From NCBI GenBank assembly GCA_000004985.1, contig GG738930.1: a DNA stretch of 64,000 nucleotides; one strand, given 5' to 3'. Source of the stretch: Naegleria gruberi (taxonomy: Eukaryota). Position 1 is the stretch's first letter, and every line of letters begins with the position of its first letter. The notes below the pieces were generated by a model. It saw only the letters and a list, made by a program, of their open reading frames with translations. It made no database searches and was not told where the DNA came from. This document shows, one piece after another, positions 35,201 to 63,976 of the stretch. The position numbers were made by a program, and so were the translations under genes.

Positions 35201-35829
35201 CTCAAAGTGGTGAAGATGAAGATGCTCCAGTTATTGGTGGTACTATTATTGAAAAATTGACCATCACCTGGTCTGGTGCTTCACAAGCCCTTATTTCTGT
35301 GGATGATGACGAAAATTCAGCTCCTACAGACTCTGTTCCTGTTGCCTCTCAACATAACAAAACTATTGAGCTCAAACCACTTAAACAAGTTCTTGTTGAT
35401 TTGGACATTAATACCTCGTCTGTTCCTCTTGAAATTATTTGTTACAATATTTGGGAAAAGGATGAAAATTTGATCAATAATGAGTTCAGTAAGAAGATTA
35501 TTGATAAGAATACCAAGGCTGTCTGCAGTAGAAATGCACATGGTTCCAAGCAATTCTCCTCTGATAGTACTACAGCTGTCCTCAAGAGCTCATCAGAAGC
35601 TCAAGGCAAGCAAATGGAAAAGCTTATCGATAACATGCAAAAGATCAATAGAAGAAAGAAATTCTTTGAACAAGACAATAACAACAATTCATCTCCATAC
35701 ACATCAGGAGGAGGTTCTTCTTCATCAGGCCCTAACAATAATTTTGAAAGAAGAGGAAAACCATTTGCAAGAGGAGGTGGTAACGTGAATTCAAGAGGAG
35801 GTGGTTCCAGAAGACAATACAATCAATAA
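29227..35829 (+). CDS. 2,200-aa fusion protein: N-terminal low-complexity/coiled-coil region, then Cid1-family nucleotidyltransferase (terminal uridylyl / non-canonical poly(A) polymerase, NTase plus PAP-associated), then DIS3L2-type 3'-5' exoribonuclease (CSD, RNB, S1), then an RGG-box tail
   Basis: Uninterrupted 6.6 kb ORF. NTase: [25 protein letters not shown] (GS..DxD), [65 protein letters not shown]. PAP-associated: [19 protein letters not shown]...[40 protein letters not shown]...[80 protein letters not shown]. S1: [26 protein letters not shown]. Tail: [22 protein letters not shown]. Confidence 0.85.
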   Translation: [2200 protein letters not shown]

Positions 35830-35868
35830 TTCTCTTCACGAATAAATTTCTTTAAATTCAAATCCACC

Positions 35869-35918
35869 NNNNNNNNNNNNNNNNNNNNNNNNNNNNNNNN
35901 NNNNNNNNNNNNNNNNNN
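35869..35918. other. Assembly gap (50 N) in the intergenic region after the fusion gene
   Basis: Run of n. Confidence 1.
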
Positions 35919-36049
35919 CAACACACCAATCCTATTAAGTTGTTCGTTCATCAAAAAACTCAACACTTATTATTATTTTGATTGTATTGATTAATCCTCT
36001 ATTTTGTTAATAGATCCTTCTTCTCATCATTGTTATTGAGAAAACAAGA

Positions 36050-47213: not shown

Positions 47214-50200
47214 TCAATTATATATACTTTGAGTAATCCAAGTATCCAATGGAATATTGATAGGACTTGAATATTTATCCAATGCAATCTCTTCTCCTTT
47301 CATTAGATTTTCAGAAAAGAGAGATTTTGATTTTTCACTTCTCAGTTCCTTGTAAGTTGAGTTTGAGATGTGAACTTGATTGACCTTTCCTGTTGCTTCC
47401 ATCATTTGAGCAATTTCAACTGCAGGTCCAAATAAATCATATGTTCGTTTCACTTTTCCAACAACTGCTGCGATCACATCATTTCCAGTGTGAATTCCCA
47501 ATCGAACTGATAATAAATGATCAGTATTTGTGTAGGTAGTATATTGTTTCATGTTTCGAATCATTGCAAGACCTCCCTTTACAATGTTATCTGCATGATT
47601 GGTCTCACTCTTCGAAAGACCTGAAGCAACAAAGTAACAATCACCAATGGTCTTGATTTTCTCCAAATTCAGTTCAGTACAAACATTGTCAAAGAGTGTG
47701 AAAATGTCATGTAAGATTTTGACAACATCTTTTGGTGATTTTCTTGAAGAGAAATCAGTGAAACCAACCATATCACAATATAACATGGAGCAGGAATCGA
47801 TTGTGTCAATGACAGTCTGGCCCATGCTCAATCTTTCTGCAATACTTTTTGGGAAAATCTTTTCTGCAATTCTTGTCATGTGTTCTTCTGGTGTTGACAA
47901 TGATTTGTAATCTCTGAGATAGGCCACATAGGATGGTTTTCCATCAGTGACAATTTGTGAAATTTTAATTTCCAAAGAAATGATCTTTCCAGATTTGGTT
48001 TCTCCCTTCACTTTCCGTGTTACATCCACAACGCCATTTTCTCTACTTCGACATCTATCCAAATAACTGTCATGTTTCAACCTATCTCTACTGTTGCAAA
48101 TAATCTTGACATTTCTTCCAACAATTTCCTTTGGTTCATATCCAAATGTAGATGAAGCTGCCTTGTTAAAAACTTGAATAATTCCCTTGTCATTAATTGT
48201 AATGACTGGAATGATACTTAGATCAGTAATAGCATGTTTGAAAGAGTTTGTAACAGCTGCCTGATGTTCATTATCAATTTCCTTGAAGAATTTCAAATAG
48301 ACACAAAAGTGAATTTCTTGAAGTTTCTTAATTGGAATAATTCTTGCAGTTACAATGAAGAATTGTTTAAGCATGGTAGCTTTGGCTCTGAGATATCGTT
48401 CCTCTGAGAGTGATTTCCTTCTTGTTGCTTTTTCTTCCTCACTCAATTGACTATATGGCTTAATATCATCGAGATAGTTCTGATCAGATCCAATTTTATC
48501 TGCCTTCAGAGTGCTATTCTCTGTTGGACCCAAGAATTCATACATGGCTTGATGAAGTTCAACGGAGGCATCATCCAAGAATAATTCACTAACATGTTCT
48601 CCCATTGCACTGAATGAATAAACTCCAAATAAATCCTCTGCTTCCTTATTAAGAAACTCAATGGATCCAAGTTTGTCAAAAACAAGAACTGGAAATCCAC
48701 AATGAACAAATTGATGAACTAAATAATTCAATTGAGAGAATTCTACCTGATGTGTAAATCCAACTTCATCACAAATTTCTCTCTGACTCAATACAGTAGT
48801 ATCTGTTGTTGACCTGATTGAAATTTCACTTGTTGTATCAGAAAAGTTTCCATCAGATTCTTCCAATCGTTGCTTCAATTTTGAAAGGAATCTTTGATTA
48901 ATTGACTGTTTGTATCCTTGATCATTTCTTGACATTCCTCTATCCACAGGAGGTGGTCGTTCCTGAGTGGTGTTTGTTGTTGGTGTTGGTCTTTGTTTTG
49001 GTACAGAACTAGCTTCTCTCATATAGACACTACTCTCTCTTTGAAGTGCCCCTCTTGGAAGCTCAGAAGATCTCGTCACTACACTATTTTCTCTTTGAAG
49101 TTGACCACGAGGTCTTTCAGAAGATGACGACTGATTCCTGACAGAGTTTTCTCTCTGTAAAAATCCTCGAGGTGCTCCACTTGTCATGATGCTGTTCTCT
49201 CTCTGGAGAGTTCCTCTTGGATTTTGAGAGGCAATCATCAGACTATTCTCTCTTTGTAAAACAGAGGTTGCTCTCCTATTAGAGGAAGTCATTTCAGTAA
49301 TTGGTGTCTTTTCTGTTGTTGAGGTAAAAACTGAATTTTCTCTCTGGAGAGTTCCTCTCTTAATCATTTGTGAATTTGATGAAACCAGAGGAGGAGGAGG
49401 AGCCTGTTGTTGAAGAATATCCTTTGTAACAAGTAAGGAAGATCCCTCTCTGATGAGTATTCCTTTTGGTTTTGATGACTCGCCTGCTATTGAATTATCT
49501 CTAATCAATCGAAAACTTGGCTTTAAATCCACACCCTCCAGAATATTCCGAGAACTTGATGTATTGATTGATGAGGAATCGAGTGGAGCTGATGATACAG
49601 AGCTTGTTGGTTGCTGTTGATTTTGCTTCTTTGCCAAGAATTCTGCAAAAGCTAGTTGATGTTCATCGAGTAATTGTTGAGTGGAGGAGCTTATCTCAAC
49701 ACTGCCTCCACTACCAGAATTCATGTTATTCTTTGGAGTTGGTTTGAAATTCACACCAGAGAGAATATTCCTCGAACTCTGACTATTCAATGTGCTTTTT
49801 GGTGATGAAGAATTTTGAAGAGAAATTGCTGATGGTGAGGAAACTTCAGGTTGAGCTTCTTGTATGGTTATCTTTTTAATCATGGTACCTCCAGAGCCAG
49901 CCAGTATATTCCTCGAGCTCTGGCTATTCAATGCGCCACCTGTTGTTGCTATCTGTTCCTTCTTTTGTGCAATGTATTCCCTTAATTCCCGATCATCATC
50001 ATCATTGCTTAATTGAATTTTTCTGGATGATGAAGAGAAGCCATTGGCATTCAGTGGAATCTTTCCATTGTTTGCCATCATGATGGAAGAATTGGCAAAT
50101 ATATTTCTCGAACTCTGATGATTGAATTGTGCTGATGATTGTTGAGCTGTTGTTGGAGTTGTTTTCATCTTTTGAGCCAAAAACTCCTGTAAGGCCTTCT

Positions 50201-50231
50201 CATCTTCATTGTATCCATACAAATCGTCCAT
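47214..50231 (-). CDS. PAS-PAS-class III nucleotidyl cyclase (adenylyl-cyclase-like), soluble; the N-terminal region contains 4 repeats of an acidic-ALQEFLAKK...QSSRNIL.G module
   Basis: PAS 1: CGFPVLVFDKLGSIEFLNKEAEDLFGVYSF..; PAS 2: IPVITINDKGIIQVFNKAASSTFGYEPKEIVGRNVKIICN...GKIISLEIKISQ; cyclase: LYCDMVGFTDFSS...EKIKTIGDCYFVASGL...GIHTGNDVIAAVVGKVKRTYDLFGPAVEIAQMMEATG. Probable start ATG 50231 (MDDLYGYNEDEKALQEF); the ORF stays open upstream to 50369. Confidence 0.8.
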   Translation of the reverse strand: MDDLYGYNEDEKALQEFLAQKMKTTPTTAQQSSAQFNHQSSRNIFANSSIMMANNGKIPLNANGFSSSSRKIQLSNDDDDRELREYIAQKKEQIATTGGALNSQSSRNILAGSGGTMIKKITIQEAQPEVSSPSAISLQNSSSPKSTLNSQSSRNILSGVNFKPTPKNNMNSGSGGSVEISSSTQQLLDEHQLAFAEFLAKKQNQQQPTSSVSSAPLDSSSINTSSSRNILEGVDLKPSFRLIRDNSIAGESSKPKGILIREGSSLLVTKDILQQQAPPPPLVSSNSQMIKRGTLQRENSVFTSTTEKTPITEMTSSNRRATSVLQRENSLMIASQNPRGTLQRENSIMTSGAPRGFLQRENSVRNQSSSSERPRGQLQRENSVVTRSSELPRGALQRESSVYMREASSVPKQRPTPTTNTTQERPPPVDRGMSRNDQGYKQSINQRFLSKLKQRLEESDGNFSDTTSEISIRSTTDTTVLSQREICDEVGFTHQVEFSQLNYLVHQFVHCGFPVLVFDKLGSIEFLNKEAEDLFGVYSFSAMGEHVSELFLDDASVELHQAMYEFLGPTENSTLKADKIGSDQNYLDDIKPYSQLSEEEKATRRKSLSEERYLRAKATMLKQFFIVTARIIPIKKLQEIHFCVYLKFFKEIDNEHQAAVTNSFKHAITDLSIIPVITINDKGIIQVFNKAASSTFGYEPKEIVGRNVKIICNSRDRLKHDSYLDRCRSRENGVVDVTRKVKGETKSGKIISLEIKISQIVTDGKPSYVAYLRDYKSLSTPEEHMTRIAEKIFPKSIAERLSMGQTVIDTIDSCSMLYCDMVGFTDFSSRKSPKDVVKILHDIFTLFDNVCTELNLEKIKTIGDCYFVASGLSKSETNHADNIVKGGLAMIRNMKQYTTYTNTDHLLSVRLGIHTGNDVIAAVVGKVKRTYDLFGPAVEIAQMMEATGKVNQVHISNSTYKELRSEKSKSLFSENLMKGEEIALDKYSSPINIPLDTWITQSIYN

Positions 50232-50733
50232 CTTTTCTTTGTCAATAAATGTACAAGGTAAATTATCTTCCGTCTTATTAAGGCACTTAATATTCTTCTT
50301 CTTCTGCTTCCAATTATTGAATTGATAATACAAAAAACAAACTCTAGCAGCAGTAGCAGAACAATACAAGTTGGGTTGATCTTTTTCTTTTACGTTAACT
50401 GTTTTGAATATTATTGTGTTTGCTAGTTTGCAAGTTTCCTTGCTTGTGTGAAGAGTTTTTTCTAAACCTCAAATCAGAAGTTCATGATGCCTTATTCTTA
50501 AAGTGCGGATGAGGGCACTTTATGACCAGTTATGGAAGAGAGCTGTTGTGTGAGATTCTAAGGGCCTTGTTGAGGGAACAATTTCACAATTACATTCATC
50601 AAGCATTGAAATCATGAAAAGTCTTGATATTTAATATATATATAAATAAATGGTCGAAAATTGATAAAGAAAATTTGAATATTTAATTTCTTGTGAATTT
50701 GTAATGAAATAATTATTAAAATTGAGTATTTAA

Positions 50734-51354
50734 TTATTCAATTTTATCCTTTTCCAATACTTTTGAATGATCCAATTGTTTTGGTATTTCCAATGAATTT
50801 GAATGTTTGGAAGAAACACAACAAAATGCCCAAATTATTAATCCAAACAAGAAAATCAGCAAAATTCCAACAATTACCATCAAGAATGCAATCACTACAA
50901 ATGCAATTCCATATCCAACAAGTAAATTAAACAAAAATTCCAAATCTTCTTCTTTCCATCCCCATTCCTTTCTGAGATAAATTCCTATTCGAAAGAATTG
51001 ATCATAAATTTGTTTACGTGTTGGATCGGAGAGTGTTTCATAGGCTTTAGTCATTTGGGAATATTGTTCTGTGAGGAGGGAAAAGTCACTCCGATTAAAT
51101 CCGAATTGTGTTAGAGTTTCGTCTGATTGTGGAGATTCGTCTTGAACCAAGGATTGAATTTGTTCATATCTTTCCTTGACGGTTTTAAATTTCTCGTTAA
51201 TTTCTTCGATAGTTGCTGAACGTGTTAAATCCAACACTGAATAAAAATCGGAAGTTTCTTCTTCATCTTGTTGGAAACTAGAAGAAACTAGAACCACAAG
51301 AATTGACATGAAAATTAAAAGGATAATACCTCTCCCAACCATCATTGATGCCAT
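50734..51354 (-). CDS. Membrane protein with a signal/TM helix, a J-like domain lacking the HPD tripeptide, and a C-terminal TM helix
   Basis: MASMMVGRGIILLIFMSILVVLVSSS; DFYSVLDLTRSATIEEINEKFKTVKERYE...AYETLSDPTRKQIYD (J-domain helices II-IV, with HPD replaced by an insertion); YGIAFVVIAFLMVIVGILLIFLFGLIIWAF. Confidence 0.4.
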   Translation of the reverse strand: MASMMVGRGIILLIFMSILVVLVSSSFQQDEEETSDFYSVLDLTRSATIEEINEKFKTVKERYEQIQSLVQDESPQSDETLTQFGFNRSDFSLLTEQYSQMTKAYETLSDPTRKQIYDQFFRIGIYLRKEWGWKEEDLEFLFNLLVGYGIAFVVIAFLMVIVGILLIFLFGLIIWAFCCVSSKHSNSLEIPKQLDHSKVLEKDKIE

Positions 51355-51421
51355 TTTTTATTTTAATATTAAATTAAATAATCAAATAATTAGCTCCTTC
51401 TATTTCTAGAAACAAAGTTTC

Positions 51422-52303
51422 CTAATTTGTAATCAAATCGTACAAAATGAAACCTCCAGAAATTGCCAAAGAGGTAGCAATACTAATCTTCCATCCTCTG
51501 AAAAATCCAGAAATTCCTTCTTCCTTATAAGTTTTTTGGAAACAATCCAAAGTTCCAGAAAAAGTTTTTTCCTTCTTGTCAGCTTGAACTTGAAGTTTTC
51601 TTTCGACAGTTTCCAATGGATAGCAGATGAGAAAGTTGGAAAATGAAATGAGTTGGGCGATTAGGAATTTGGCCCTGATGTCGTTTGGATATGGATTGAC
51701 ACTTGTCAAAATGTCATACATGACAAAATAGGAAAATCTGTATACGATTAATTTGATTAAGGAAGCGTCAAGACCAACAAATAGAGCAGAATAACCATTG
51801 GTTTCAATAGTCTTCTTTAAAACATCGATTGGACCTGAATATTGTCTCTTGCCAATTGTGTCAAATGCCAATTTAAATCTGACATAGGCTAATGGTCTTG
51901 TAAGAGCTTCCATGGCAGTTCCTATCAAAGCTCCACCAACTACATTTCTCAAATAGTACTTTCCCAAGTCAGTGCTTGGATCAAATTTTGGGATTATATT
52001 GAAAATCTTCATTAACATTGGAGAAAACATGCCAGTCAAGATATTTTTCAATAATTCAACAGGAAATCCTCTGAACCAACTGGAAATTCCTTGATCTTGT
52101 TTAATTTGTTGCAGGATTGTAATGGTATTCAACTGTTTATCACCAATTTGCTTGGCCAATTGATGATCGGCTTGGTGAGATTGAAGAATGCATGCGGCTG
52201 TGAAAAGAGGACAAATTGGCAATTTAACAAGTAGACTGGACGAAACCTTTGCTACAATACCGACGGTCACCTGTACGAGTGGGCTGTTGTTGCTTGTTTG
52301 CAT
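51422..52303 (-). CDS. Mitochondrial carrier family protein, ADP/ATP-carrier-like but divergent (no RRRMMM signature)
   Basis: Three carrier repeats. Motifs YSGTLDCFQKTYKEEGISGFFRGWKISIATSLAISGGFILYDLI and ALFVGLDASLIKLIVYRFSYFVMYDIL resemble the AAC motifs YTGTVDCWRKI..EGxxAFFKGAWSNVLRG and LYRGFxVSVQGIIIYRAAYFGxYD. ATG 52303. Confidence 0.6.
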   Translation of the reverse strand: MQTSNNSPLVQVTVGIVAKVSSSLLVKLPICPLFTAACILQSHQADHQLAKQIGDKQLNTITILQQIKQDQGISSWFRGFPVELLKNILTGMFSPMLMKIFNIIPKFDPSTDLGKYYLRNVVGGALIGTAMEALTRPLAYVRFKLAFDTIGKRQYSGPIDVLKKTIETNGYSALFVGLDASLIKLIVYRFSYFVMYDILTSVNPYPNDIRAKFLIAQLISFSNFLICYPLETVERKLQVQADKKEKTFSGTLDCFQKTYKEEGISGFFRGWKISIATSLAISGGFILYDLITN

Positions 52304-52322
52304 TTTTTTGTTTTGACCGACG

Positions 52323-53733
52323 ATGAAAAAAATACCTCAACAAGACCATCCTCCGGATACGGAAGGGAGTAATTTGCTTGCTGACAGGATTTTTGTGTTA
52401 GAGAGAGCAATTAAAACCTACCAAAAGGAAAACAATAATCTCCGTGACTATCTTCAACAACTTGTAAATATATGTAATGGTCACCCGTTATTGAATAATA
52501 ATAATAATAATCCCATCAAACCTGTAAATAATAATCTGATCAATACCCAACCATCAGAAAATGAAAATCTATTTATTACTAGAAATCCAGTAAATGTTAG
52601 AAATCTACCAACTAGTAGAAATTTAATTAATGGTGGAAATTTCTTGACTGAGACAGTTCAAATATGCGATAGTAATCCTAAAAATAGAACTGTCAGTTAT
52701 GCTGATATTACAAGATTAGCTCCTATTAAAGCTCAGCCATCTATTAAGAAAACAATAGCAAAACAAAAATCAACAACTAATAAGATGAAAAGAAATATGG
52801 CAACTAATACTAGACCTAACAAACGTAAATCTAATTACAATCTTAATCAAATAATTAATGTAATTTGCTACAAAGATGTTACTAACGAATTTGTTGAACA
52901 AATTACAGACCTACTCGGTGACTCTGTAATCATTAGAGTTAATCGATACTGTAATAATATTATTAATGTAATTTGCCCTGATGAAACCAGTTATAAAGAG
53001 TGTTTCAATCAATTAGTGCAAGGAAGTCATGGAGGAAAATTCATATTAGAATGCTTTCCATCTCCAGCAATCTTTAATCCTAAACCTTTAGCACTTTCAC
53101 ATACTACTTCCAGTAAAACTACTCACCTTAAAATGCTAGAAAATATTATTAGCAAATATATATTGGAAGATAATATTTCTGTTGAGGAACTCTACACTAA
53201 CTATTCTCATAACCAATTTATAATTAGAATATCATTTGAGGATCAAACTATTTGCTCTCAAATGGCACAAAATCTTGGTTTAAATCAATATAAAACTATT
53301 GAACAGATTAGAAATGAAACCAAGGAGACAACATCTCAATGCTCTATTCCAATTAATTATACTAATGATGAAATTAAAAAAGGAATTATCCAAGCATTTA
53401 CCAGAATTAATAAGACTCTCCAAGAAAACAATCTTACCATTACTGATACAACTAACCGCTCTGGAACAACTAAATACAAATTAATTAAAATTGTACACAA
53501 TGATATGGATGAAATGAATGAATTTTGCAAGAAATCTATCTCCCTAAAGGATAAACAAAGAAATCATAGTGGAAATGGATTTAAATTTAAGCCATCTATT
53601 CAAATATTGGATTCTAAAATCCAAAGGAAAAGTAAATTACACCCATATCTTCCTCAATTAGAGTTATCACCTATTGATAAACTCGTATTTATTGATGAAC
53701 CAATTAGACAACTACCAACTACTACTATTGTTA

Positions 53734-53738
<5 letters not shown>
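52323..53738 (+). CDS. Retroelement ORF1 (471 aa; Asn-rich, no recognised domain); an alternative frame continues to 54024 across the (AAT)n tract
   Basis: ATG at 52323 is 19 bp from the divergent carrier-gene ATG. Ends in the (AAT)n microsatellite. ORF 53674..54024 in another frame encodes a coiled-coil-like IDKIEKSIIDLTQQLML... and overlaps the ORF2 start by 4 nt. Confidence 0.6.
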
Positions 53739-53770
<32 letters not shown>

Positions 53771-53771
53771 T
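53734..53771 (+). repeat. (AAT)n microsatellite (~12 units) at the ORF1 stop
   Basis: taataataataataataataataataataataata. Confidence 0.9.
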
Positions 53772-54020
53772 CACAAATGCAAATAATAGAATTGATAAAA
53801 TTGAAAAAAGTATTATAGATTTAACTCAACAGCTCATGCTCACTAATAACAATATTAATAATATAGTTGAAATACTTAAACAAGCAAATATTATTAGACC
53901 TAATAATGATAACAAAATGTTAAATAATCCTAATAATAAGATGTTAGAGGATTCTAATAATAGTAATAATAATATGTTAGATGATGAATTAAGTTCATCA
54001 TCTAATCCATCTACTCTACC

Positions 54021-57000
54021 TTGAGTAGAACCACAACAAGTTTAAGGCTAGCGTGCTATAACGTAAATGGTTTATATAAGCACGCAAGCCATAAATCAGT
54101 TACTCCTGAATTGAAATCCATGTGTTTAACACATGGAATTCACTTTATGAGTTTAACTGAAACTCACTTAAATACCCCAGAACTAGAAATAGAAGTCAAA
54201 AACTCTGGATCAGGGTACCTATTATTTAACTCATTAATGAATACAAGAAAAGGTTGCAAAGGTACTGCAGCTATGCACTTTCTAAATAATTATAGAAAGC
54301 GCAATATTACAAATAATAATCTCGTACCTGGAACATTACAATGGACACGATTCGAAAGTCGTGGAATTCCAATTAACATCTTCACAATTTATCTTAGTGG
54401 AAGATAATGATTATGACAATGAGGAAGAAGCTCTTAATAGCTTTATTAATGCTGCCCTCACAATTAAAGATGAACATATTATTTTAAGTGGTGATATTAA
54501 TATTGATACAAGAAATCCCACTAGTAAAAGAGAAAAAGACTGGCTATGGATACTTAATCTACTCAGACTAACCGAATTACAAACATCCAATAATACTTGG
54601 ATAAGAAGAGTTCAATCTAATATTTTTGAATCGAAACCTGATCATGTCTTTGTGTCAAAAGACATAAGAATAGTTAAAGAAGTGCTCATGCCTCCATTAA
54701 CCACTAATGATCACATTCCTTTCTATATAGATCTCGAATTTAAATCTAACTTAACCTGGAGACCTTACTTTAGTAAGAGTAAGAGAAAGAAAATATATGA
54801 AGAAATTAATAAGTCTCCTATAGATAATTTCAAAGAGTTAAATCAAGCTATCTTGACTCAAATTAACAAATATGGCTCCAAAACTGATAGATTAGGTGTT
54901 GGTCGAATCTCAACAGCCTATAAAGAAGAAATTCAAGATTTGGAAGAAGAAATTCTTCACAAATTAAATAATGAAACTATTTCTCAATCAGAAATATCTG
55001 AATTACAAACATTACTGAAAGAAACTCATATTAAAAATGGAAAACATATTAAGGAAAAATTGATAGAAGAATTCAATGATAGAACTTCATCTAAAATGTA
55101 TCAATTTGATAGAATGGTTCATTCCAAAGAAATTAAATGGAAAGATATTAATTTCGAAGAAGAGGAAATTTTAGAATACTTTACAAATAAGTTTACCTCG
55201 ACTAATCAACTTCCAACATTCATTCCAAGTAGATCAACTATTAAAGAAGGACCAAATTGGACCAACTCGATCCATATAGAAGAATTGGAAAAAGCTTTAA
55301 AACGTATGAAATCAAATACCCCTGGTCCTGATCTAATTTCTCTGGATATTATTAAGCATCTCACAGAAAAAAATCAGAAAATTTTATTGAACGAATTTAA
55401 TAATTGCCTAAGAATAGGTGATATCTCTGAAGATTGGAAGCAAGGATGGGTGAAACTCATTCCTAAAAGAGATATCACTTCTCTCAGTGACATTCGTCCA
55501 ATCACTATTTTACCTACATTTTATAGAATTTTATTTAATATTATAGCCTTTCGACTTAGATCTTGGGCATCATCTCATATAAATATGAGACAACAAGCAT
55601 TTATTACAGACAGAAACACTTTAAATCATGGTGTCCTTCTATCATCATTAGCTATGAAAACTAAGAAAAGAACCTTCATTCTTGTTAACCTAGATATTGA
55701 AGGAGCTTATGATGCTGTAGAATTGTCAGTGATTAAAATGGCACTAGACCATTGTAAATTTCCTAACGAACTCACTCAATTTATTATTAATGCCTATAGC
55801 AACCATGAATTGAGCCTAGAAATTGATAATCATCTATCCACAAAATTTACAAAAACTCGAGGAATCCCACAAGGATGCCCATTGGCTCCTCTTATATACG
55901 ATTGTATCACACAATTAATTATTGATAAAGCAATAGATAAATGGAAAATACCAATCAAACCAAACAAACTATGTGCTAATGATATTGCACTCTGTTGCTT
56001 TGCAGATGATATGAATGTTGTCTGTGACAGATATGCCAAATACAATGACAGGCTAGATAACATACATGACTGGCTAGGTCAACTACTTTTTAAACTAAAT
56101 GCAAAGAAATCAGTTGCAACTCTACTACCTAAAACAAGCAAAGTATCTCCCAAAATTAAGGGTACACCTATTCCTAAACAAAAAAACCTTAGGATACTTG
56201 GACATTATCCATGGGATGATATTCTGGTTCGACAAGATATCCAAAACAAAATTGAAAAATTTACCAAATCTTTGAAATTTCTCCCATTATTCAAAATTGA
56301 ACCAGATAACCTTAAACAAATTATTCACGCTAAAGCTATTAGCTTATTTACACACCTTTCTAAAATTAACTTAATTCCTCTGAAAAAGGCACAACAAATT
56401 GATATAGCCATTAGAGGAGCAATTAGAAGAAAACTATATATGGACAGGAAAACACCAACCAGCTTATTCCACTTACCATTAGAAAAAGGTGGATTAGGAC
56501 TACCATCTATTGTAGAATTTTCTGAAAGAATGAACCTAAGAACCATGACCTTAATTGCTAACAGTAACAATTTACTCGTCAAGAAAGCTTTCAAACATGG
56601 TATCAAGCACTGTGAGGAAACGAAAGACAATATTTATTCGAAATGGCTACTAGTACTAAAAGAATACAACCTCACACTTAAGAAAAATGAAATGAAATTC
56701 AAGTTGAAAAAAATCAAAACAGGAAATAATTTTGATATTCACACTGACGGATCAAGACTCGAATCAAAGACTGGAATGGGGATTAATATCTATGATTGCT
56801 CCAATATGAACACTCCAGTTAGATCTTTATCCCTCCATATTAATGATCAATATTCAAATAATGTAGCTGAAATATGCTCTATTATTACAGCAGCTAAAGT
56901 TATCCCAAGAGACTCCAAGATTAAAATCCATACTGATAGTAATGTGGCAATTGAAGTTCTCAAAGAACGATATAAGGGAAACTTTCTACCACTAAAAAAA

Positions 57001-57705
57001 GCCTTCTTTAAAACCATTAAGGATAGAAAACTTGAATATGAATTCAAGAAAGTTGAAGCTCATAAGGATAAGGAAAATATCAAAGTTGATTTATTGGCAA
57101 AGAATGCAACTCTGAAACCTAAAATCTTTGATATCCGTAAACTACTCTTTAATCAATATATCCTCACAAAGAACGATATTATAATCTTTGACTATAAGAG
57201 GTTAACTACCTCACAACATTTAAGGCTAATGCTTGACAAGATAGAGAGTCACCCCAATCACATACCTAACCTAGATTGGAACTCTATCAACGTCAGCTAC
57301 CTTAAATCCCATTTGTCTCCTAAATCTAAATATTATATTTGGAGAAACTCTTCAAATGCCCACATCAATTTTGGTGAGGGTAAAAGTTTCTGTCATGATT
57401 GTAACACAGAATCTGACCTTAATCACTATATTCATGAATGCCCTGCTCTGGATAGTGCCAGATACTTTTGCTTGTCAAAAATATCTGATATTCTTGATCA
57501 GAGAGAGTGTAAACTCACTCATATTCAATTCAGACCAGAAAAGCATCACCATGTACTCTTCTTCCACCATTCTGGAACCACATTCTTCGAAGATGGATAC
57601 GTACAACAATACCCAGACATTGCAGAGAAATGGCCTGAGATCCAGGGAGCCATTTCTAACTTTGTCGGCCGCTCCTATAGATATTATTATATTGACTCAA
57701 TGTAA
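54021..57705 (+). CDS. Retroelement ORF2 (endonuclease-RT-RNase H-Zn knuckle) with a +1/-1 frameshift near 54365-54410 (defective copy or sequencing error) and no ATG at its start
   Basis: Frame A (54021..54407) encodes the endonuclease N-terminal part through IYLSGR*; frame B (54361..57705) continues ...DNDYDNEEEALNSFINAALTIKDEHIILSGDINIDT... through RT and RNase H to the stop at 57703-57705. Confidence 0.8.
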
Positions 57706-57720
57706 ATTTACAAATTCAAA

Positions 57721-57775
57721 GAGAATCTGAATAGATTCGTTATTATTGCAATAAAAGATTTTTTTGTTTTGATCG
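57721..57775 (+). repeat. Retroelement terminal module copy 1: gagaatctgaatagattcg..atttttttgttttgatcg
   Basis: Same bipartite unit recurs at 58382..58452; the second half also forms the element's 5' end (52304..52322). Confidence 0.7.
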
Positions 57776-58381
57776 TCCCTCAAAAAAATACCTCAACGTC
57801 TAGTACGTTTGTGCGGTTTTCTAGATTGACCAAGATGCAAGTAGCACAGCGCTAAACTATCGCCGTAACTTTCGGCATCGAGGTTTAGATGGATTCAAAC
57901 TATGTATTGTTTATTCTTGTCTGTAGAATAACATATAGCTATCTTCTGTCAAAGATTTAAAGCAGGTTTCTTTAGTTTAGCACGGGCAAAACAATGTAAA
58001 GATACCGAGGCGTGGAGAGTAATGATTTAATTATGAACAGAAAGGAAATTTTATAAGAATATAATCAAAGAGAATAGATATTGTAGAACGTTACGTAAGA
58101 ATTTTATTGCAGCGTAAGAGATGGTATTGGATCACCTTCTCGATATCCTTGACAGATATTTCAGATGCTTCCCCATTTAATTTTCTATTATTTCGCGATG
58201 TTTACTTTCCCTATGGTTTCCATTAGTCACGGTCTAACTCTTGATTAGTTTCCAACTATGCAACTTAAAGGCTAGGCGATAACTCCACTCCTAAAAGTCC
58301 CCGTCCAATGACGAAGCTGTGAATGAACTTTGTTCCTACGATACACACTCCAAAAGTACACCATCACAAGAGTGTTTGGTC

Positions 58382-58452
58382 GAGAATCTGAATAGATTCG
58401 AAAAATTGTAGTGTATAATAATCGGTATTATAAATTTTTTTGTTTTGATTGG
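58382..58452 (+). repeat. Retroelement terminal module copy 2 (solo, no ORFs attached): gagaatctgaatagattcg-N33-aatttttttgttttgattgg
   Basis: 19/19 match to 57721-57739 and 15/15 match to tttttttgttttgat. Confidence 0.7.
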
Positions 58453-58457
58453 TTTTT

Positions 58458-58569
58458 ACAAACAGCCCATGCATTAAATTTGTGATATTGTGAAATGATT
58501 TTGATTGAGTGGTTTCGATGAACTTTTTGCTTCTTCCAAATGAGGGTTGTTTAATGCATGGCTGTTTGT
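58458..58569. repeat. Inverted repeat / hairpin candidate: 21-nt arm acaaacagcccatgcattaaa (58458-58478) and its complement, minus 1 nt (tttaatgcatggctgtttgt, 58550-58569), with a 71-nt loop
   Basis: Direct reading: 20 of 21 positions complementary, with a single-C bulge. Confidence 0.75.
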
Positions 58570-58726
58570 AAGCAAATAAAACGATGCAACAAAGTTTCCA
58601 ATTTAGCATTTGACCTCTAGAAAATATTTAGAATTCTAGTAGTAAAAATTAATGCATAAAATAATTGATGACATAGGTATCTGCCTACTTCGTTAATGTT
58701 TTACATTTTTTTTCCAATATCGTGAA

Positions 58727-58807
58727 GCAGGGGTTCCCGAGTGGTCAAAGGGGGTAGACTCAAGTTCTACTGCGCAAGCTTCGTGGGTTCAAATCCCACC
58801 TTCTGCA
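58727..58807 (+). tRNA. tRNA-Leu (anticodon CAA), type II, 81 nt
   Basis: GCAGGGG-TT-CCCGAGTGGTCAAAGGG-G-GTAGA-CTCAAGT-TCTAC-TGCGCAAGCTTC-GTGGG-TTCAAAT-CCCAC-CTTCTGC-A. Very close to the canonical eukaryotic tRNA-Leu(CAA) D-arm and anticodon arm (GCCGAGTGGTCTAAGGCGCCAGACTCAAGTTCTGG). Long variable arm. Confidence 0.85.
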
Positions 58808-58810
58808 AAT

Positions 58811-58825
58811 TTTGTTTTATTTTTC
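58811..58825 (+). terminator. Pol III T-run downstream of tRNA-Leu
   Basis: tttgttttatttttc starting 4 nt after the tRNA. Confidence 0.5.
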
Positions 58826-58999
58826 TTCATCTTCGAGATTGGAGCTTTTCTTTACCAATGAATATGTTCCAGTAATTCCTTGTATCTATGGTTGAAAGAT
58901 GATATTTTACAAATAAGAGATTATTTAGAAAATCAACAAAGATTACAAGCACCTCAAATTTTCTTGCTAAAAATGCTATTAATTTTGTTAGCTCAATAT

Positions 59000-60279
59000 T
59001 TACTTTTTCTTTCCGCCACTCGACACATTGAATTTAAAGTGCAAAATATCACCATCCTCTACCTCGTAGGTCTTTCCCTTCTCCTTGAGCTTTCCATTAT
59101 TTTTACATTCCGATTCACTACCATATTGCTTGTAATCTTCAAAACTCATAACTTCAACACAAATAAATCCCTTTTCAAAATCACTGTGAATTTGACCAGC
59201 AGCAGCTGGGGCCTTCATTCCTCTCTTGATGGTCCATGTACGCACATGTTGACCACATGTGAAATAATTGATGAGATTAAGCATGGCATATCCAATCTTG
59301 ATAATATCTGCCATCTTGGAGTTGATTCCCTTCTTGATTAATTCTTGTCTCTTTTCTTCATCAGTCTCTTGCCATTTCTTTTCAAAGGCAGCACTGTATG
59401 GAATGACAGGTTCAGCAATTGCACTCTTAGAAGTGACATATTCTCTAATCTTAATGACATGCTCATTCTTTTCTGGATCCACAACATCTTTTGGTGTCAT
59501 ATTCACAAGATAAATCATTGGTTTAGAGGTCAACAATTGGTGAGGATTGAGTAATTCAATATCCTTACTAGCCCAATCACCAAATCTCACTTCCTTTCCT
59601 TCCTTCAACATTTCCAATGCCTTTTCGACAGCAACGAGTTCAGAAGCCTTCTCCTTCTTTTGCTTTCCCATCTTTTCGAGTGGTCCCTTAACATTTTCCA
59701 AATAGGAAATATCCTTCTTGATCAATTCCTGTTCAATGGTTTTAATATCTCTCACTGGATCAATACTACCCTCAACGTGAGTAATATTCTTCGATTCGAA
59801 TGTTCTTACCATATGGAAAATGGCATCAACAGCTCTAATATGAGAAAGGAATGCATTTCCCAATCCTTCACCTAATAATTATTTCCAATCCAATTCATGA
59901 ATTATTTGAATTTAAAAATCCACATTTTCACACACACAAAATATTCACAAAAACACTTCTCACACTCCTAAAACAAACCTTCTGAAGCATTCTTGACCAA
60001 TCCAGCAATATCAGTCACATTCAAAATAGCTGGGGCATTATCTGTTGCTCCCAAATGTTTCACCAACCAATCATATCTCTCATCTGGCACTGCAACATGA
60101 CTCGTGCTCGGATCAATGGTACAGAATGGAAAATTCTCAGCTGGCACTGAAGAATTGGTGAGAATGTTAAAGAAGGTTGATTTACCAACGTTTGGCAAAC
60201 CAACGATGCCAATATTCAAGTTGGTTCCCACTCTGCCAAAGGCAATATTCTTATTTTCTGTTGTTGTTGAAGAAGACAT
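59000..60279 (-). CDS. Obg-like ATPase 1 (OLA1/YchF family GTPase/ATPase); join(59979..60279, 59000..59871) on the minus strand, intron 59872..59978
   Basis: G1 motif [35 protein letters not shown]|G|[15 protein letters not shown] (intron GTTTGT..TTATTAG, phase 1, restores the conserved GxGLGNxFL), TGS region [19 protein letters not shown]...[18 protein letters not shown]. Confidence 0.9.
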
Positions 60280-60460
60280 TTTTTTTGAGCTGATTGGAGA
60301 GTTATCATGATTCTTGTTGAAGTTGTGGCGTTGGCGAAAATATTACCAAATGGAGAAAGGAGTCGTTCAGTGCACTGATTTATTTGGCACGATTATTATA
60401 ACTATCAGTTCTCTAAAAAAATTAAGAGTTTTGTAATAAATCTTTAAATTACTTTGGAAA

Positions 60461-60479
60461 ATAAAAAGAAAACAAAAAG
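60461..60479 (-). terminator. Pol III T-run downstream of tRNA-Thr (minus strand tctttttgttttcttttta)
   Basis: Immediately 3' of the tRNA on its own strand. Confidence 0.45.
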
Positions 60480-60480
60480 A

Positions 60481-60554
60481 TGCCTCCCTTGGGAATCGAA
60501 CCCAAGACCTCTGTCTTACTAGGACAGCGCTACTGCCAACTGAGCTAGGAAGGC
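60481..60554 (-). tRNA. tRNA-Thr (anticodon AGU), 74 nt
   Basis: GCCTTCC-TA-GCTCAGTTGGCAGTAGC-G-CTGTC-CTAGTAA-GACAG-AGGTC-TTGGG-TTCGATT-CCCAA-GGGAGGC-A. Perfect anticodon stem. Anticodon arm is near-identical to the animal tRNA-Thr(AGU) (TGTCTAGTAAACAGG). Confidence 0.85.
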
Positions 60555-60613
60555 GCACATTTCATTAAAATCCTTAATAAAATTGTTTTTCATATATGCA
60601 GCTTTCTTTTTTA

Positions 60614-61870
60614 TTACACAATAATCAAAATGAGTAGTAAAGCAAGAATGATCCAATTTCCAATTAGCTTCTCTGCTGATGAAACCTTTGTGCTATTTGC
60701 TGGTTGAATAATTGGTTGACTTACGGTTGGTGTTACCATTGGCGTCACAAAAGTTACATAGACCAATCCTTCAGTTTCCTTCACTGTGAATGTATTATCT
60801 TTTGAAACAGTTACATTTCTTCCAAAAATATCTACTACTGAACTGGCACTATTTGCCTTAATATTAACTGAAGCTCCAGTTTCAGTTGGCAACAGGACAA
60901 TAACTGAATCATTTGAACTCTTAAATCTCATAGCAGTTACAGAAGGGTGTTCAATTTGAATATATCCATCAAATAATCTATTTCTTACGATTGAACTCAA
61001 TTGCTTGACGGCTTTCATGGCTGGCTTGTCAGTATAATTATTGAAAAGCAAACCGAAATTGTGTTCTCTATTTGTTGGGTCAACTCCATCATTTCTCAAA
61101 TCGTAATAAATGTAAATTGGGAAACCAACTGCGCATGAGGAGAGTAATCTTCCTACTACATTATTAGCATGAAGTCTCAATGCTGCTTCGTCCAATCCAT
61201 TCGAGTTTGAGTCGAAATCAGTTGCTGTGAGACCCCATTCAGTATCCCAAACAGGTGGCACCGTAGAAATCAAAGATTTTTGAGCACTTGTCAATGTAGA
61301 TGCCTTTCCTTGAAGAGTGGCATTGATGTTATCATTAATAATTGATCTGAACTTTCTAGTCAAATCTGGGAATCTTCCGAATGGTGATTTAGGACTACCA
61401 ACTCCATAAGGATGCAATCCTATTCCAGAAAACAATTGAGAACCATTCTTTGAGGCAGCACCACCTTCAGATGTGAAACCTCTCACAAAAGTATACGAAA
61501 AACCAGCGACACCAGTTGTAGAAACTTGAGCATTTGGGTTTCCCTCTCGAATGGCAGCAACTGCAGCTTTTGATAATGCAGCATAAGTAACTGGAGTGAA
61601 TCCCTGAAGATCTGCCTCATTATAAACCTCGAAAATAACATTCTCATTAGCGTAATGCTTAGCAGCTGCTCTACTATAATTAGCAAAAGCTTCGATGGCG
61701 ATATCGGTAGTTGGTGGAGTAGAGGCACTTCCAGTGTAGAGAGTATTGGAATAGGTTAGAATGAACAATGCTTTCAATCCTCTCAATTTCAATGCAGTCA
61801 ACAATGTGTCATAAGAAGCAAAGTTGTAAACTTGTTTGGTTGTTTCAACTGATGACCAGAACAAATCCAT
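60614..61870 (-). CDS. Clan GH-A (GH5-like) glycoside hydrolase with a C-terminal GPI-anchor-type hydrophobic tail; the N-terminal signal peptide is probably missing (the gene abuts gap 61924..61983)
   Basis: Acid/base motif VIFEVYNEADL (NEP-like) and nucleophile motif VWDTEWGL (TEWG); Ser-rich stalk then IGNWIILALLLILIIV*; the ATG at 61870 is preceded by an in-frame stop and no signal peptide is seen. Confidence 0.55.
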   Translation of the reverse strand: MDLFWSSVETTKQVYNFASYDTLLTALKLRGLKALFILTYSNTLYTGSASTPPTTDIAIEAFANYSRAAAKHYANENVIFEVYNEADLQGFTPVTYAALSKAAVAAIREGNPNAQVSTTGVAGFSYTFVRGFTSEGGAASKNGSQLFSGIGLHPYGVGSPKSPFGRFPDLTRKFRSIINDNINATLQGKASTLTSAQKSLISTVPPVWDTEWGLTATDFDSNSNGLDEAALRLHANNVVGRLLSSCAVGFPIYIYYDLRNDGVDPTNREHNFGLLFNNYTDKPAMKAVKQLSSIVRNRLFDGYIQIEHPSVTAMRFKSSNDSVIVLLPTETGASVNIKANSASSVVDIFGRNVTVSKDNTFTVKETEGLVYVTFVTPMVTPTVSQPIIQPANSTKVSSAEKLIGNWIILALLLILIIV

Positions 61871-61923
61871 TCTAATCCATGAGAAACCACCTGCTTGACA
61901 GCATCTAATCCCTTATCATCACT

Positions 61924-61983
61924 CGAAAGAATANNNNNNNNNNNNNNNNNNNNNNNNNNNNNNNNNNNNNNNNNNNNNNNNNN
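61924..61983. other. Assembly gap (60 N) that truncates the second PAS-cyclase gene and probably the 5' end of the glycoside hydrolase gene
   Basis: Run of n; the sequence on its high-coordinate side (61984-62023, minus strand ..AYIRDYKSLSTPE) is homologous to 47884-47923 of the first cyclase gene, which is immediately followed there by the cyclase domain. Confidence 1.
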
Positions 61984-63976
61984 CTTCTGGTGTTGACAAT
62001 GATTTGTAATCTCTAATATAAGCAATGTATGAAGATTTACCATCTTTTAGAATGTGGGATACTCTGATTTCTACCGAGATGATCTTGCCTGACTTGGTTT
62101 CTCCCTTCACTTTCTTTACCATATTGAGAGTATTCTTATCTTTGGTTTTACATTTTTCCAAATAGCTGTCATGTTTGAGTCTATCCTTCTTATTACAAAT
62201 AATTTTGACATTTCTTCCAACAACTTCTTTAGCTTCGAAACCAAAAGTGGATGAGGCAGCCTTGTTAAAAACTTGAATAATTCCCTTGTCATTGATTGTA
62301 ATAACTGGAATAGTAATCATTTCTGTTACTGCTTGATTCAGTGAGTTGGTCATTTGTGAATATTTGCCATTTTCTGCTTGTTGAGCAAACCTCATGTATA
62401 TACAAAAGTGAGTTTCTTGTAATTTTGATATTGGGATAATCTTGGCGGATACTGAAAAGAATTGCTTGATTGTTGTTGCTTTGGCTCTCAAAGTTCTTAA
62501 CTGTGAAAGGGCCCTTCTTCTCTCCAGTTTTTCTTCCTCACTGATTTGATTGTAAGGTCGAATATCATCGAGATAGTTCTGGTCTGAACCAATTTTATCT
62601 GCCTTCAGAGTGCTATTCTCAGTTGGACCCAAGAATTCATAAATTGCCTGATGTAGTTCAACAGAAGCATCATCCAAAAACAATTCACTCACATGTTCCC
62701 CAAGAGCACTGAATGAAAAGACTCCAAATAAATCCTCGGCTTCCTTATTCAAATATTCTATTGAGCCAAGTTTGTCAAAAACAAGAACTGGAAATCCACA
62801 AGTCATGAATTGAGACACCAAATGATTCAACTGTACAAATTCTACCTGATGTGTAAATCCAACTTCTTCATTAATTTCTCTATCACTCAGTAGGGCAGTT
62901 TCTGTCGACCTCACAGACATAACAGAAACTTCGCTCACTGTATCAGGAAAATCATCAAATCCTTCATTCTTCGTTTTCATTTTGGAAAGGAATCTCTGAT
63001 TAATTGACTGTTTGTAGCCTTGATCGTTTCTTGACATTCCTCTTTCGAGTGGAGGTCTTGCTCTGGGCACAGATTGTGATCCCTCCCTCATCATTAAACT
63101 GTTTTCTCTCTGTAGTGGCCCTCTCTTTGTTGGAACATCAGACAAGGGTTTATCAGATAGCTCATATTCATTATTCTTCCTAGTAATAAAACTACTATTC
63201 TCTCTTTGTAACATTCCTCTCCTAGGAGCAGATGGTGCTGTTGTCATTGTAGAATTACCTCTCAATAGAGGAGGTGGTCTCGATAGTGTGCCATCGTTAT
63301 TCGTCAGCAGAGAAGAACCTTCCCTCCTTAACATTCCTCTTGGTTTTTGGGAGATAGTAGAATTTTCTCTTGTCAGTTTTGGAGCTACTCTCAACGATGA
63401 AGAAACTCCAACTTTAAGCATTGCAGAGGTATCCAAACCTTCAAATATGTTCCTAGAACTTGCTGTATTTTTCGACGATACCTCATACATGGATTGTTTT
63501 TTAGACATGAACTCATTAAGTGCTTTTTGATCTTCGTCTTCCTTCTCCTTTCTAGCAGAGGCAGGTGTTTCTGTTATTGTAAATGGAGCAAGAAAGTCTG
63601 AACCACCTACTCCATCATTATTTGGAATCCGTGTTGGTACTTTAGGTTTTACTGGACTAAACCCTACCAATACATTTCTCGAACTTTGAGTATTGAAAGC
63701 TCCAGGAGACGGTTTTGACTTTTTTGCTTGGAGAAACTCTTGGAGAGCCTTCTCATCCTCATCTTCATCATCCTTATTGTTTTGTTTTGTTGGGGAGGTT
63801 AGAGGTTTTTTAGGAGAAGTACTTTTAGAAAGAGCAGAAGCATCAAACGAAGCAAATATATTCCTCGAACTCTGATGATTAAAATTGGAAGAGGGTGAAT
63901 GAAGGTTTGCTGTCTTCTTCTTGGCTAGAAATTCCTGTAGAGCCTTATCGTCATCATCGTCATCATAATTTGTCAT
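61984..63976 (-). CDS. PAS-PAS-(cyclase) paralogue, 3'-truncated by the assembly gap; the N-terminal region carries 3 copies of the acidic-ALQEFLAKK...QSSRNI module
   Basis: ATG 63976 (MTNYDDDDDDKALQEFLAKKK). Same domain order and many identical blocks versus 47214..50231 (CGFPVLVFDKLGSIE[F/Y]LNKEAEDLFGV[Y/F]SFSA[M/L]GEHVSELFLDDASVELHQA[M/I]YEFLGPTENSTLKADKIGSDQNYLDDI; IPVITINDKGIIQVFNKAASSTFG[Y/F]E[P/A]KE[I/V]VGRNVKIICN). DNA about 85% identical over long stretches. Confidence 0.7.

Follow-up and report, generated by a model that had tools for sequence, protein, structure and literature searches.

The 64,000-nucleotide stretch of Naegleria gruberi contig GG738930.1 (assembly GCA_000004985.1) analysed here, henceforth the window, has a G+C content of 34% and carries on its minus strand two paralogous genes that encode a repeated N-terminal module, two PAS domains and, in the complete copy, a class III cyclase homology domain. 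Copy 1 (47214..50231, minus strand) is complete and consists of a single exon encoding 1005 amino acids counted from the first plausible methionine, the mechanical start of its open reading frame (ORF) being a TTG at 50369. The protein is identical over its entire length (100% identity, 100% coverage) to the N. gruberi 'predicted protein' P0001 of NCBI, which is placed on a scaffold of 158,571 bp. Copy 2 (61985..63976, minus strand) is represented by its 5′ 664 codons, comprising the N-terminal repeats and the domains PAS-A and PAS-B, and its frame is still open where it reaches a run of Ns. An initial annotation, made from the nucleotide letters, had recognised two PAS-PAS paralogues on the minus strand, and both ORFs are indeed present, can be aligned end to end and contain Pfam PAS domains. 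The search with PAS and Guanylate_cyc profiles that it had proposed detected PAS_4 and PAS/PAS_9 in both copies and Guanylate_cyc in copy 1 alone; Pfam gave no Guanylate_cyc match in the visible part of copy 2, the corresponding region of which falls in the gap. The framing of the pair against the cyclases of Dictyostelium was misplaced, the DNA being that of N. gruberi, a heterolobosean amoeboflagellate, with a protein of which copy 1 is 100% identical. Copy 1 contains no transmembrane-like segment (highest Kyte-Doolittle score in a 19-residue window, 1.25).

The proteins encoded by the two copies share 48% identity overall (BLASTP, 650 bits), with far higher identity in the PAS-PAS half. Their DNA identity had first been put at about 85% over kilobases; BLASTN returned 76.0% across a single segment of 1,085 bp (copy 2, 61984-63056, against copy 1, 47885-48954) plus one match of 32 bp, and the N-terminal halves were scarcely alignable as DNA. 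Divergence in the PAS-PAS region, calculated by the Nei-Gojobori method, amounted to a dS of ~1.05 and a dN of ~0.18 (dN/dS ~0.17). On the strength of this dS and of the 76% nucleotide identity we regard the pair as a duplication of long standing in which purifying selection has acted on both copies, and not as an assembly or allelic artefact.

The sensor half of both proteins is a tandem of PAS domains. PAS-A spans approximately residues 513-648 of copy 1 (48288..48695, minus strand; Pfam PAS_4 at residues 512-565) and ~62387-62794 (minus strand) in copy 2, and has no haem histidine, the corresponding column being occupied by Ile or Val across the PAS-A domains of the family. PAS-B, matched by Pfam PAS/PAS_9, covers approximately residues 674-774 of copy 1 (47910..48212, minus strand) and ~62009-62311 (minus strand) of copy 2. 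In copy 1 it matched the haem domain of Bradyrhizobium japonicum FixL (BjFixL) with a phmmer E-value of 1e-17. When PAS-B of copy 2 (residues 526-664) was compared with the sequences of the PDB, all 13 matches at E<=0.01 were haem domains of FixL or DosP (E 9e-14 to 6e-8), led by the B. japonicum FixL (E 9e-14) and followed by FixL of Sinorhizobium meliloti (E 2e-11) and Escherichia coli DosP/YddU (~1e-8). The segment DRLKHDSYL of copy 2 aligns on DRSRHDSYI of FixL, so that the proximal haem ligand of BjFixL, His200 on the F-alpha helix, is conserved as His602 in copy 2 (codon 62171-62173) and as the candidate proximal His720 in copy 1 (codon 48072-48074). The equivalent of His200 proved invariant in the 22 related PAS-B domains compared, which come from Naegleria and Willaertia, from a diatom and from eukaryote-like environmental sequences; neither P0072, an unrelated PAS-cyclase of N. 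gruberi, nor the bacterial PAS-cyclases recovered in the searches have it. At the positions of Arg206 and Arg220 of FixL, copy 1 and most of the family carry Arg/Arg.

Structure prediction pointed the same way. An AlphaFold2 model of residues 331-664 of copy 2, built on an alignment of 20 sequences (mean pLDDT 74.9), showed two PAS folds joined by a connecting helix, the first of them preceded by an N-terminal helix and interrupted by a disordered insert of low confidence. Its best match in a Foldseek search of the PDB was the entry 'Dimeric PAS domains of oxygen sensor FixL' (8js5/8js6; E 3.5e-15 over ~270 aligned columns), and DosP came next. The initial annotation had thus been right about the two PAS domains and had overlooked the FixL-type haem signature of the second. 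Judged by sequence and predicted fold, the sensor module is best described as a FixL-like PAS-A/PAS-B(haem) tandem, and we think it reasonably probable that PAS-B binds haem. A LOV-type, flavin-binding PAS-B, which the motif GRNVKIIC might have suggested, was rejected, as the position of the adduct-forming Cys is occupied by Val and no LOV domain appeared among the 13 PDB matches at E<=0.01.

PAS-B of copy 1 is followed by a linker helix and a cyclase transducer element (..STPEEHMTRIAEKIFPKSIAERL..; 47808..47885, minus strand) that aligns to the LLLNILPxxIAxRLK segment of canonical class III cyclases, and then by the class III cyclase homology domain itself (47325..47807, minus strand), recognised by PF00211 Guanylate_cyc at residues 809-969 with an E-value of 4.5e-44 (150.7 bits; cut-off 21.9). 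Both metal-binding residues are present (D820 and D864), and the substrate pair K860 and D932 is of the ATP (adenylyl) type. The transition-state Asn and Arg, equivalent to N1025 and R1029 of the C2 domain of transmembrane adenylyl cyclases (tmAC), are replaced by E939 and M943 respectively. In the alignments, YDLFGPAVEIAQMME of copy 1 lies against YDIWGDTVNIASRMD of AC9, and the segment YDLFGPAVEIAQMMEATG against YDIWGDTVNIASRMDTTG of AC9 C2. The best PDB matches of the domain were tmAC C1 domains and the alpha subunit of soluble guanylyl cyclase (sGC), with 100.8 bits for AC9 C1 compared with 57.4 for C2, and 108.9 for sGC alpha1 compared with 71.4 for beta1. The initial annotation had correctly seen a class III cyclase domain in copy 1 and had missed that the catalytic Asn and Arg are absent from it.

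We compared these residues in 13 members of the Naegleria/Willaertia clade and 16 other cyclases taken from the searches. Asn and Arg were both absent from all 13 clade members, which have E, A, T or S in the Asn column and M, I, L or S in the Arg column, and both were present in 14 of the 16 outgroup cyclases. The Lys/Asp pair and the second metal-binding Asp were kept throughout the clade (13 of 13 for each), and the first metal-binding Asp was kept except in P0006 and P0007, which have Glu, and in P0009, which has an alignment gap at this position. The Lys/Asp pair, usually found on the partner (C2/beta) side, is thus retained despite the C1/alpha-like pattern of the domain. Identity between species is high, P0003 of N. 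gruberi and P0005 of Willaertia sharing 73% and the orthologues of N. fowleri and N. lovaniensis 89%, which argues that the cyclase domain is not decaying. Since the haem-PAS cyclases outside the clade (P0018 from a diatom, P0015 and P0019) have canonical residues, the loss of Asn and Arg is derived. Efficient catalysis by class III cyclases depends on this Asn and Arg, and sGC alpha and the Arg-less tmAC C1 act in heterodimers only. With both residues gone, a homodimer of copy 1 would be expected to be weak or inactive; from its sequence we consider full activity of such a homodimer rather unlikely, and the domain may instead work together with a complete cyclase domain or have a regulatory role as a pseudo-cyclase.

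The N-terminal part of both proteins is of low complexity, covering approximately residues 1-450 in copy 1 (48882..50231, minus strand), where no Pfam domain was found, and a disordered region at 62986-63976 (minus strand) in copy 2. The repeated module that the initial annotation had noticed here was recovered by a motif scan in both copies and in P0006 and P0007. Its first part, an acidic stretch with ALxEFL followed by N-x-x-SSRNI[LF], occurs three to four times (four times in copy 1); its second part consists of five to seven RGxLQRE[NS]S / R-E-[NGS]-S motifs, seven in copy 1 and five in copy 2. These short motifs are conserved in three Naegleria species, and those of the second part, multiple sites of the form hydrophobic-x-R-E-N-S-hydrophobic, have R-x-x-S cores that fit the consensus of basophilic kinases (CaMK/PKA-like, with R at -3), which makes them candidate phosphorylation sites.

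Homologues were collected with the conserved C-terminal 576 amino acids of copy 1 as the query, the full-length protein having returned only two matches because of saturation by low-complexity words. The resulting family comprised 14 PAS-PAS-cyclase proteins from N. gruberi (P0003, P0012, P0013 and P0014), N. fowleri (P0006, P0009 and P0011), N. lovaniensis (P0007, P0008 and P0010), Willaertia magna (P0005) and environmental assemblies. An exhaustive search of representative sequences yielded mostly giant multi-PAS proteins and added one family member (P0146). In all full-length members (13 of 13) a cyclase domain follows the same PAS-B/linker junction. In a neighbour-joining tree of the PAS-PAS region with 500 bootstraps, copies 1 and 2 were sisters in 100% of the replicates, and the pair grouped at 77% with P0006 of N. 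fowleri and P0007 of N. lovaniensis, the single orthologue in each of these species, both of which share the N-terminal repeats. As the copies are sisters and the other species have single orthologues, the duplication took place in the N. gruberi lineage. The initial annotation had called it a local segmental duplication. The copies are true paralogues that arose by local duplication, but the BLASTN similarity is confined to the coding region, so that 'nearby gene duplication' is the safer wording; no duplicated flanks were seen, the upstream flank of copy 2 in the window measuring 24 bp and its downstream flank being the gap.

Six other genes, one retrotransposon and two tRNAs lie between the copies; these features include a DnaJ-like membrane protein, a mitochondrial carrier, a UPF0223-like protein, a non-LTR retrotransposon, a tRNA-Leu, YchF/OLA1, a tRNA-Thr and a glycosidase. 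In N. lovaniensis the orthologue stands directly upstream of an MTPAP-RNB gene and a YccF/Na-Ca-exchanger gene (L001 12874-22661). The N. gruberi counterparts, a gene for an MTPAP-like/PAP_assoc/RNB fusion protein of 2200 amino acids (29227-35829, plus strand) and the YccF/Na-Ca-exchanger gene (36050-37531, plus strand), are encoded on the strand opposite to that of the two copies, at a distance of 10-25 kb from each. This difference in gene order indicates that the region has been rearranged, in one of the lineages, as well as duplicated.

Copy 2 ends at a scaffold gap that consists of 50 N at 61934..61983, and not of 60 N from 61924 as first reported. Its frame enters the gap at ...RDYKSLSTPE, as the initial annotation had observed, exactly where copy 1 proceeds via EHMTRIAEKIFPKSIAERL... 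into the linker and the cyclase domain. The stop and ATG that it had placed beyond the gap are there too, as three stop codons at 61913-61921 and an ATG at 61870; past the N-run the minus strand reads tat tct ttc gag TGA TGA TAA ggg att aga tgc tgt caa gca ggt ggt ttc tca tgg att aga ATG. The ORF on this side encodes a PslG-like (GH39/GH5-clan) glycosidase with a hydrophobic C-terminal tail (60614..61904, minus strand) that is 5′-truncated at the gap, a probable intron acceptor AG lying at 61905-61906. Its open frame comprises 418 codons, the Pfam Cellulase match begins only at profile position 60 and, when its sequence was extended beyond the ATG at 61870 by 14 upstream in-frame residues, the protein matched PDB entry 5jvk (E 4.6e-17) and PslG (E 1.4e-14), with query residue 6 falling on residue 43 of PslG. 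At least ~40 residues are therefore missing from the N-terminus of the neighbour, where no signal sequence is present, in agreement with what had been noticed before. The C-terminal tail is strongly hydrophobic (Kyte-Doolittle 2.29), which indicates a secretory or membrane-anchored glycosidase, and with its N-terminus missing the 5′ exon or exons of the gene most probably fall in the gap.

By analogy with copy 1, the gap is most economically explained as hiding three things, as the initial annotation had argued: the missing linker and cyclase domain of copy 2 (at least ~670 bp), intergenic DNA, and one or more 5′ exons that belong to the glycosidase gene. Completing copy 2 after the pattern of copy 1 takes ~223 codons, and the hidden DNA would probably measure at least ~1.1 kb. 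Two of the three gaps in the window (35869-35918 and the one considered here) are exactly 50 N long, which suggests that 50 N is a placeholder; the other two gaps give no check on size, one being intergenic and the other (172 N, 26788-26959) lying just after a signal peptide. Because all 13 full-length relatives continue past the same junction, copy 2 probably has a cyclase domain in the gap. A homologue search with the PAS-PAS region of copy 2, made for sequence spanning the gap, returned two distant proteins of 42% identity, with neither P0001 nor P0002 among the matches, and none of the glycosidase ORF, P0001 and P0002 led to a recorded contig when looked up as an exact protein. In the public model P0002 (1089 amino acids; window 60614-63976, minus strand), copy 2 (...DYKSL) is joined to the glycosidase (CCQAGGFSW...) through a GT...AG intron that spans the N-run, the junction reading ...RDYKSL|CCQAGGFSWIRMD.... 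As it fuses a cytosolic PAS protein to a truncated secretory glycosidase, we judge it probably to be an annotation chimera of two unrelated, incomplete genes.

That the two copies are one locus assembled twice, or uncollapsed alleles, would agree with their likeness in architecture and orientation and with the single orthologue of the relatives of N. gruberi. We reject this as extremely improbable, since an identity of 76% over just 1,085 bp, with the dS and dN given above, far exceeds allelic divergence, and since the N-terminal halves differ in repeat number and by large insertions and deletions. Quite unlikely, too, is a copy 2 that truly has no cyclase domain, with a short gap (~50 bp) and either a deletion that left two truncated pseudogenes or a PAS-only protein. 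It would fit a gap written as just 50 N, the tblastn search of the whole window with cyclase domains, which detected the domain of copy 1 and no second one, and the homologue matches, among which there was no N. gruberi fragment resembling an orphan copy 2 cyclase domain. Yet a clean deletion would assemble without a gap, and the frame of copy 2 stays open to the N-run and ends at a domain boundary beyond which every full-length relative continues, while the glycosidase retains its 418-codon frame and two of the three gaps have the placeholder-like length. The dN/dS of ~0.17 in the PAS region also speaks for long purifying selection, although this is a weak argument, to which a recent loss would be invisible. 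A scaffold misjoin, in which the contigs of copy 2 and the glycosidase are not true neighbours, would allow copy 2 to be complete elsewhere and would make the distance of 12 kb between the copies an artefact. Both genes are truncated exactly at the join and the gene order differs from that of N. lovaniensis, where the orthologue precedes the two genes found here at 29227-37531, distant from the copies. An unsequenced stretch predicts the truncation of both genes equally well, however; the change in synteny also affects copy 1 inside a contiguous contig, where the rearrangement is thus real, and no positive evidence of a misjoin was found, so that we hold this explanation to be very unlikely.

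Several neighbouring features are worth recording. The non-LTR retrotransposon between the paralogues has an ORF of 1114 amino acids (54361-57705, plus strand) with RVT_1 (E 4e-28) and RNase H domains, and may begin near 53674, where short overlapping upstream ORFs possibly represent a frameshifted N-terminal part. The YchF/OLA1-type GTPase gene (59000-60279, minus strand) consists of two ORFs, with MMR_HSR1 at 59968-60279 and YchF-GTPase_C at 59000-59863, separated by ~100 bp that are presumably a spliceosomal intron; it is flanked by tRNA-Leu(CAA) at 58727-58807 (plus strand) and tRNA-Thr(AGT) at 60481-60554 (minus strand). A small membrane protein at 50734-51354 (minus strand) matches positions 40-63 only, the last third, of the DnaJ J-domain profile, which suggests either a missed upstream exon or a degenerate J-domain. 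Convergent with copy 1 and immediately 3′ of it lies a second signalling gene, encoding an RGS-domain protein of 573 amino acids (45161-46882, plus strand). The gap of 172 N at 26788-26959 breaks a minus-strand gene just past its apparent signal peptide (MERINNVMVVIFLLLL...), and that gene model may be affected.

The best match of the sensor module by both sequence (E 9e-14) and fold (E 3.5e-15) is FixL, the oxygen-sensing histidine kinase of Bradyrhizobium and Sinorhizobium (1dp6, 1d06 and 8js5), in which a tandem of PAS-A and PAS-B(haem) is likewise followed by a helical linker to the output domain, and with which the F-alpha proximal His and, in copy 1 and most of the family, the equivalents of Arg206 and Arg220 are shared. 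The output of FixL is a histidine kinase, whereas in the Naegleria proteins it is a class III cyclase homology domain, in a eukaryote and with a haem that is putative; the latter also add a disordered N-terminal repeat region of 330-450 residues, and both Arg positions are taken by Lys in copy 2. DosP of E. coli (EcDOS), a phosphodiesterase with haem-PAS domains that gave the second-best group of matches by sequence and fold, combines, as the Naegleria proteins are predicted to do, tandem PAS domains with a His-ligated haem that governs a cyclic-nucleotide enzyme, but controls c-di-GMP via GGDEF-EAL and uses Met95 as its distal ligand in place of a FixL-type Arg. Of the relatives of the cyclase domain with solved structures, the mammalian tmAC C1 and sGC alpha1 domains scored best; they have both metal-binding Asp and are without the transition-state Arg; sGC alpha1 is also without the Asn. 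The Naegleria domain differs from them in keeping the Lys/Asp pair and in belonging to a single-domain protein that is expected to homodimerise.

Bacterial and cyanobacterial PAS-(GAF)-class III adenylyl cyclases, such as P0040 of Scytonema, and P0072 of N. gruberi show the same order of PAS, transducer element and cyclase and share the Lys/Asp pair, but their PAS domains have no haem histidine and their catalytic set is complete, including Asn and Arg. In P0018 of the diatom Cyclotella and in the environmental proteins P0015 and P0019, a FixL-type KHD(S/A)Y haem-PAS stands directly upstream of a class III cyclase domain, as the putative one does in Naegleria; these proteins differ in carrying the His motif in one to five PAS domains, in their canonical Asn and Arg and in having no N-terminal repeats of the Naegleria type. 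Outside the window, P0015, P0017 and P0018 (the set including Cyclotella cf. meneghiniana) have three to five tandem FixL-type KHD(S/A)Y haem-PAS domains upstream of the class III cyclase, and haem-PAS cyclases may accordingly prove more widespread among microbial eukaryotes than the characterised literature suggests. HemAC-Lm of Leishmania is a globin-coupled oxygen-sensing adenylate cyclase whose sensor is a globin and not a PAS domain; it joins a haem-based O2 sensor of a protist to a class III cyclase domain, as the Naegleria proteins are predicted to do. The oxygen-sensing globin-coupled adenylate cyclases of Leishmania are mentioned in PMC7719234.

Taken together, the two genes are likely to be N. 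gruberi-specific paralogues of a soluble Naegleria/Willaertia sensor family built from a disordered N-terminus, a FixL-like PAS tandem, a linker and an ATP-type cyclase domain, the 3′ third of copy 2 lying in the gap. A number of findings count against parts of this reading. The case for haem binding is drawn solely from sequence and fold, the equivalent of His214 is not conserved in the family, and copy 2 has Lys at the positions of both Arg206 and Arg220. The loss of Asn and Arg makes doubtful the cyclase activity that was taken for granted when the pair was first read as a cyclic-nucleotide sensor, no complementary partner domain was identified, and in P0006 and P0007, the orthologues from N. 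fowleri and N. lovaniensis, Glu takes the place of the first metal-binding Asp. No sequence across the gap was recovered, the cyclase domain of copy 2 being deduced and not seen, and if 50 N were a true estimate of size there would be no room for ~1.1 kb.

The alternative for function is that PAS-B is not a haem sensor and that the proteins are ordinary homodimeric PAS-regulated adenylyl cyclases in which Glu and Met/Leu functionally replace Asn and Arg. Approximately 40% of the FixL/DosP PAS cluster has no haem-binding features, and its members can switch function (PMC10468136). Against this stand the proximal His, invariant in all 22 related domains, and the equivalents of Arg206 and Arg220, which are mostly retained. 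As to the output, the domain keeps its metal-binding Asp pair and its Lys/Asp pair in the manner of an active enzyme, and it is clearly constrained (73-89% identity between species); it is general knowledge, on the other side, that replacing the equivalent Asn or Arg, whether in tmAC C2 or in cyclases of mycobacteria, reduces kcat ten- to a hundredfold, and that C1 and sGC alpha domains, which are without these residues, function in heterodimers only. We therefore think this alternative unlikely and prefer the FixL-like sensor family with a C1/alpha-like output.

Under this preferred interpretation, the proteins would dimerise via their PAS domains and linker helices, and binding of O2 or another diatomic gas to the haem of PAS-B would shift the register of the linker and the transducer element. 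This shift would in turn reposition both cyclase domains. Being tmAC C1/sGC alpha-like, the domain is probably weak or inactive as a homodimer, and would either partner a complete cyclase domain or act in regulation as a pseudo-cyclase. One speculative, and on present evidence doubtful, version of this scheme is a gas-gated heterodimeric adenylyl cyclase, in which a eukaryotic FixL-type haem-PAS sensor of O2 or NO/CO is linked to a C1/alpha-like domain that needs a second, complete cyclase protein, a logic like that of sGC but built from PAS domains. If this were true, the duplication in N. gruberi would supply a pair of sensors that differ in their tuning, the haem pocket holding Arg/Arg in copy 1 and Lys/Lys in copy 2.

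How far the pair is peculiar to its lineage needs qualifying. The pair had initially been proposed to be a lineage-specific cyclic-nucleotide sensor system; the subfamily has so far been found in Naegleria and Willaertia, but the phrase is overstated for what is part of a known expansion. The N. gruberi genome paper is said to count about 108 cyclases. At least 81 cyclases have been described in Naegleria (PMC9928731) and N. gruberi is among the eukaryotes richest in PAS proteins, with 50-80 of them (PMC10468136), so that a PAS-cyclase pair is to be expected in this species. The duplication and the gap are in themselves ordinary, and both genes are already in public databases. The combination of a haem-PAS with a C1-like cyclase domain appears, on computational grounds, to be new as a variant of the haem gas sensors and of the PAS-regulated class III cyclases; a search of full-text literature returned no paper in which FixL-type haem-PAS class III cyclases are described from Naegleria or any other protist, absence from the texts searched not being absence from the literature.

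For genome curation, these results mean that the 1089-amino-acid public N. gruberi model should be split and that the gap conceals parts of two genes. That the whole clade has lost Asn and Arg and has conserved the remainder of the site prompts the question of whether single-domain class III cyclases can become obligate heterodimer subunits or pseudo-enzymes. Naegleria passes from aerobic to low-oxygen life and back, and changes its form among amoeba, flagellate and cyst, and to our knowledge no route by which it senses oxygen has been established. The family described here, with its predicted FixL-like haem-PAS joined to a cyclase domain, would offer a testable candidate for a link from O2 to cAMP, and it has orthologues in the pathogen N. 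fowleri.

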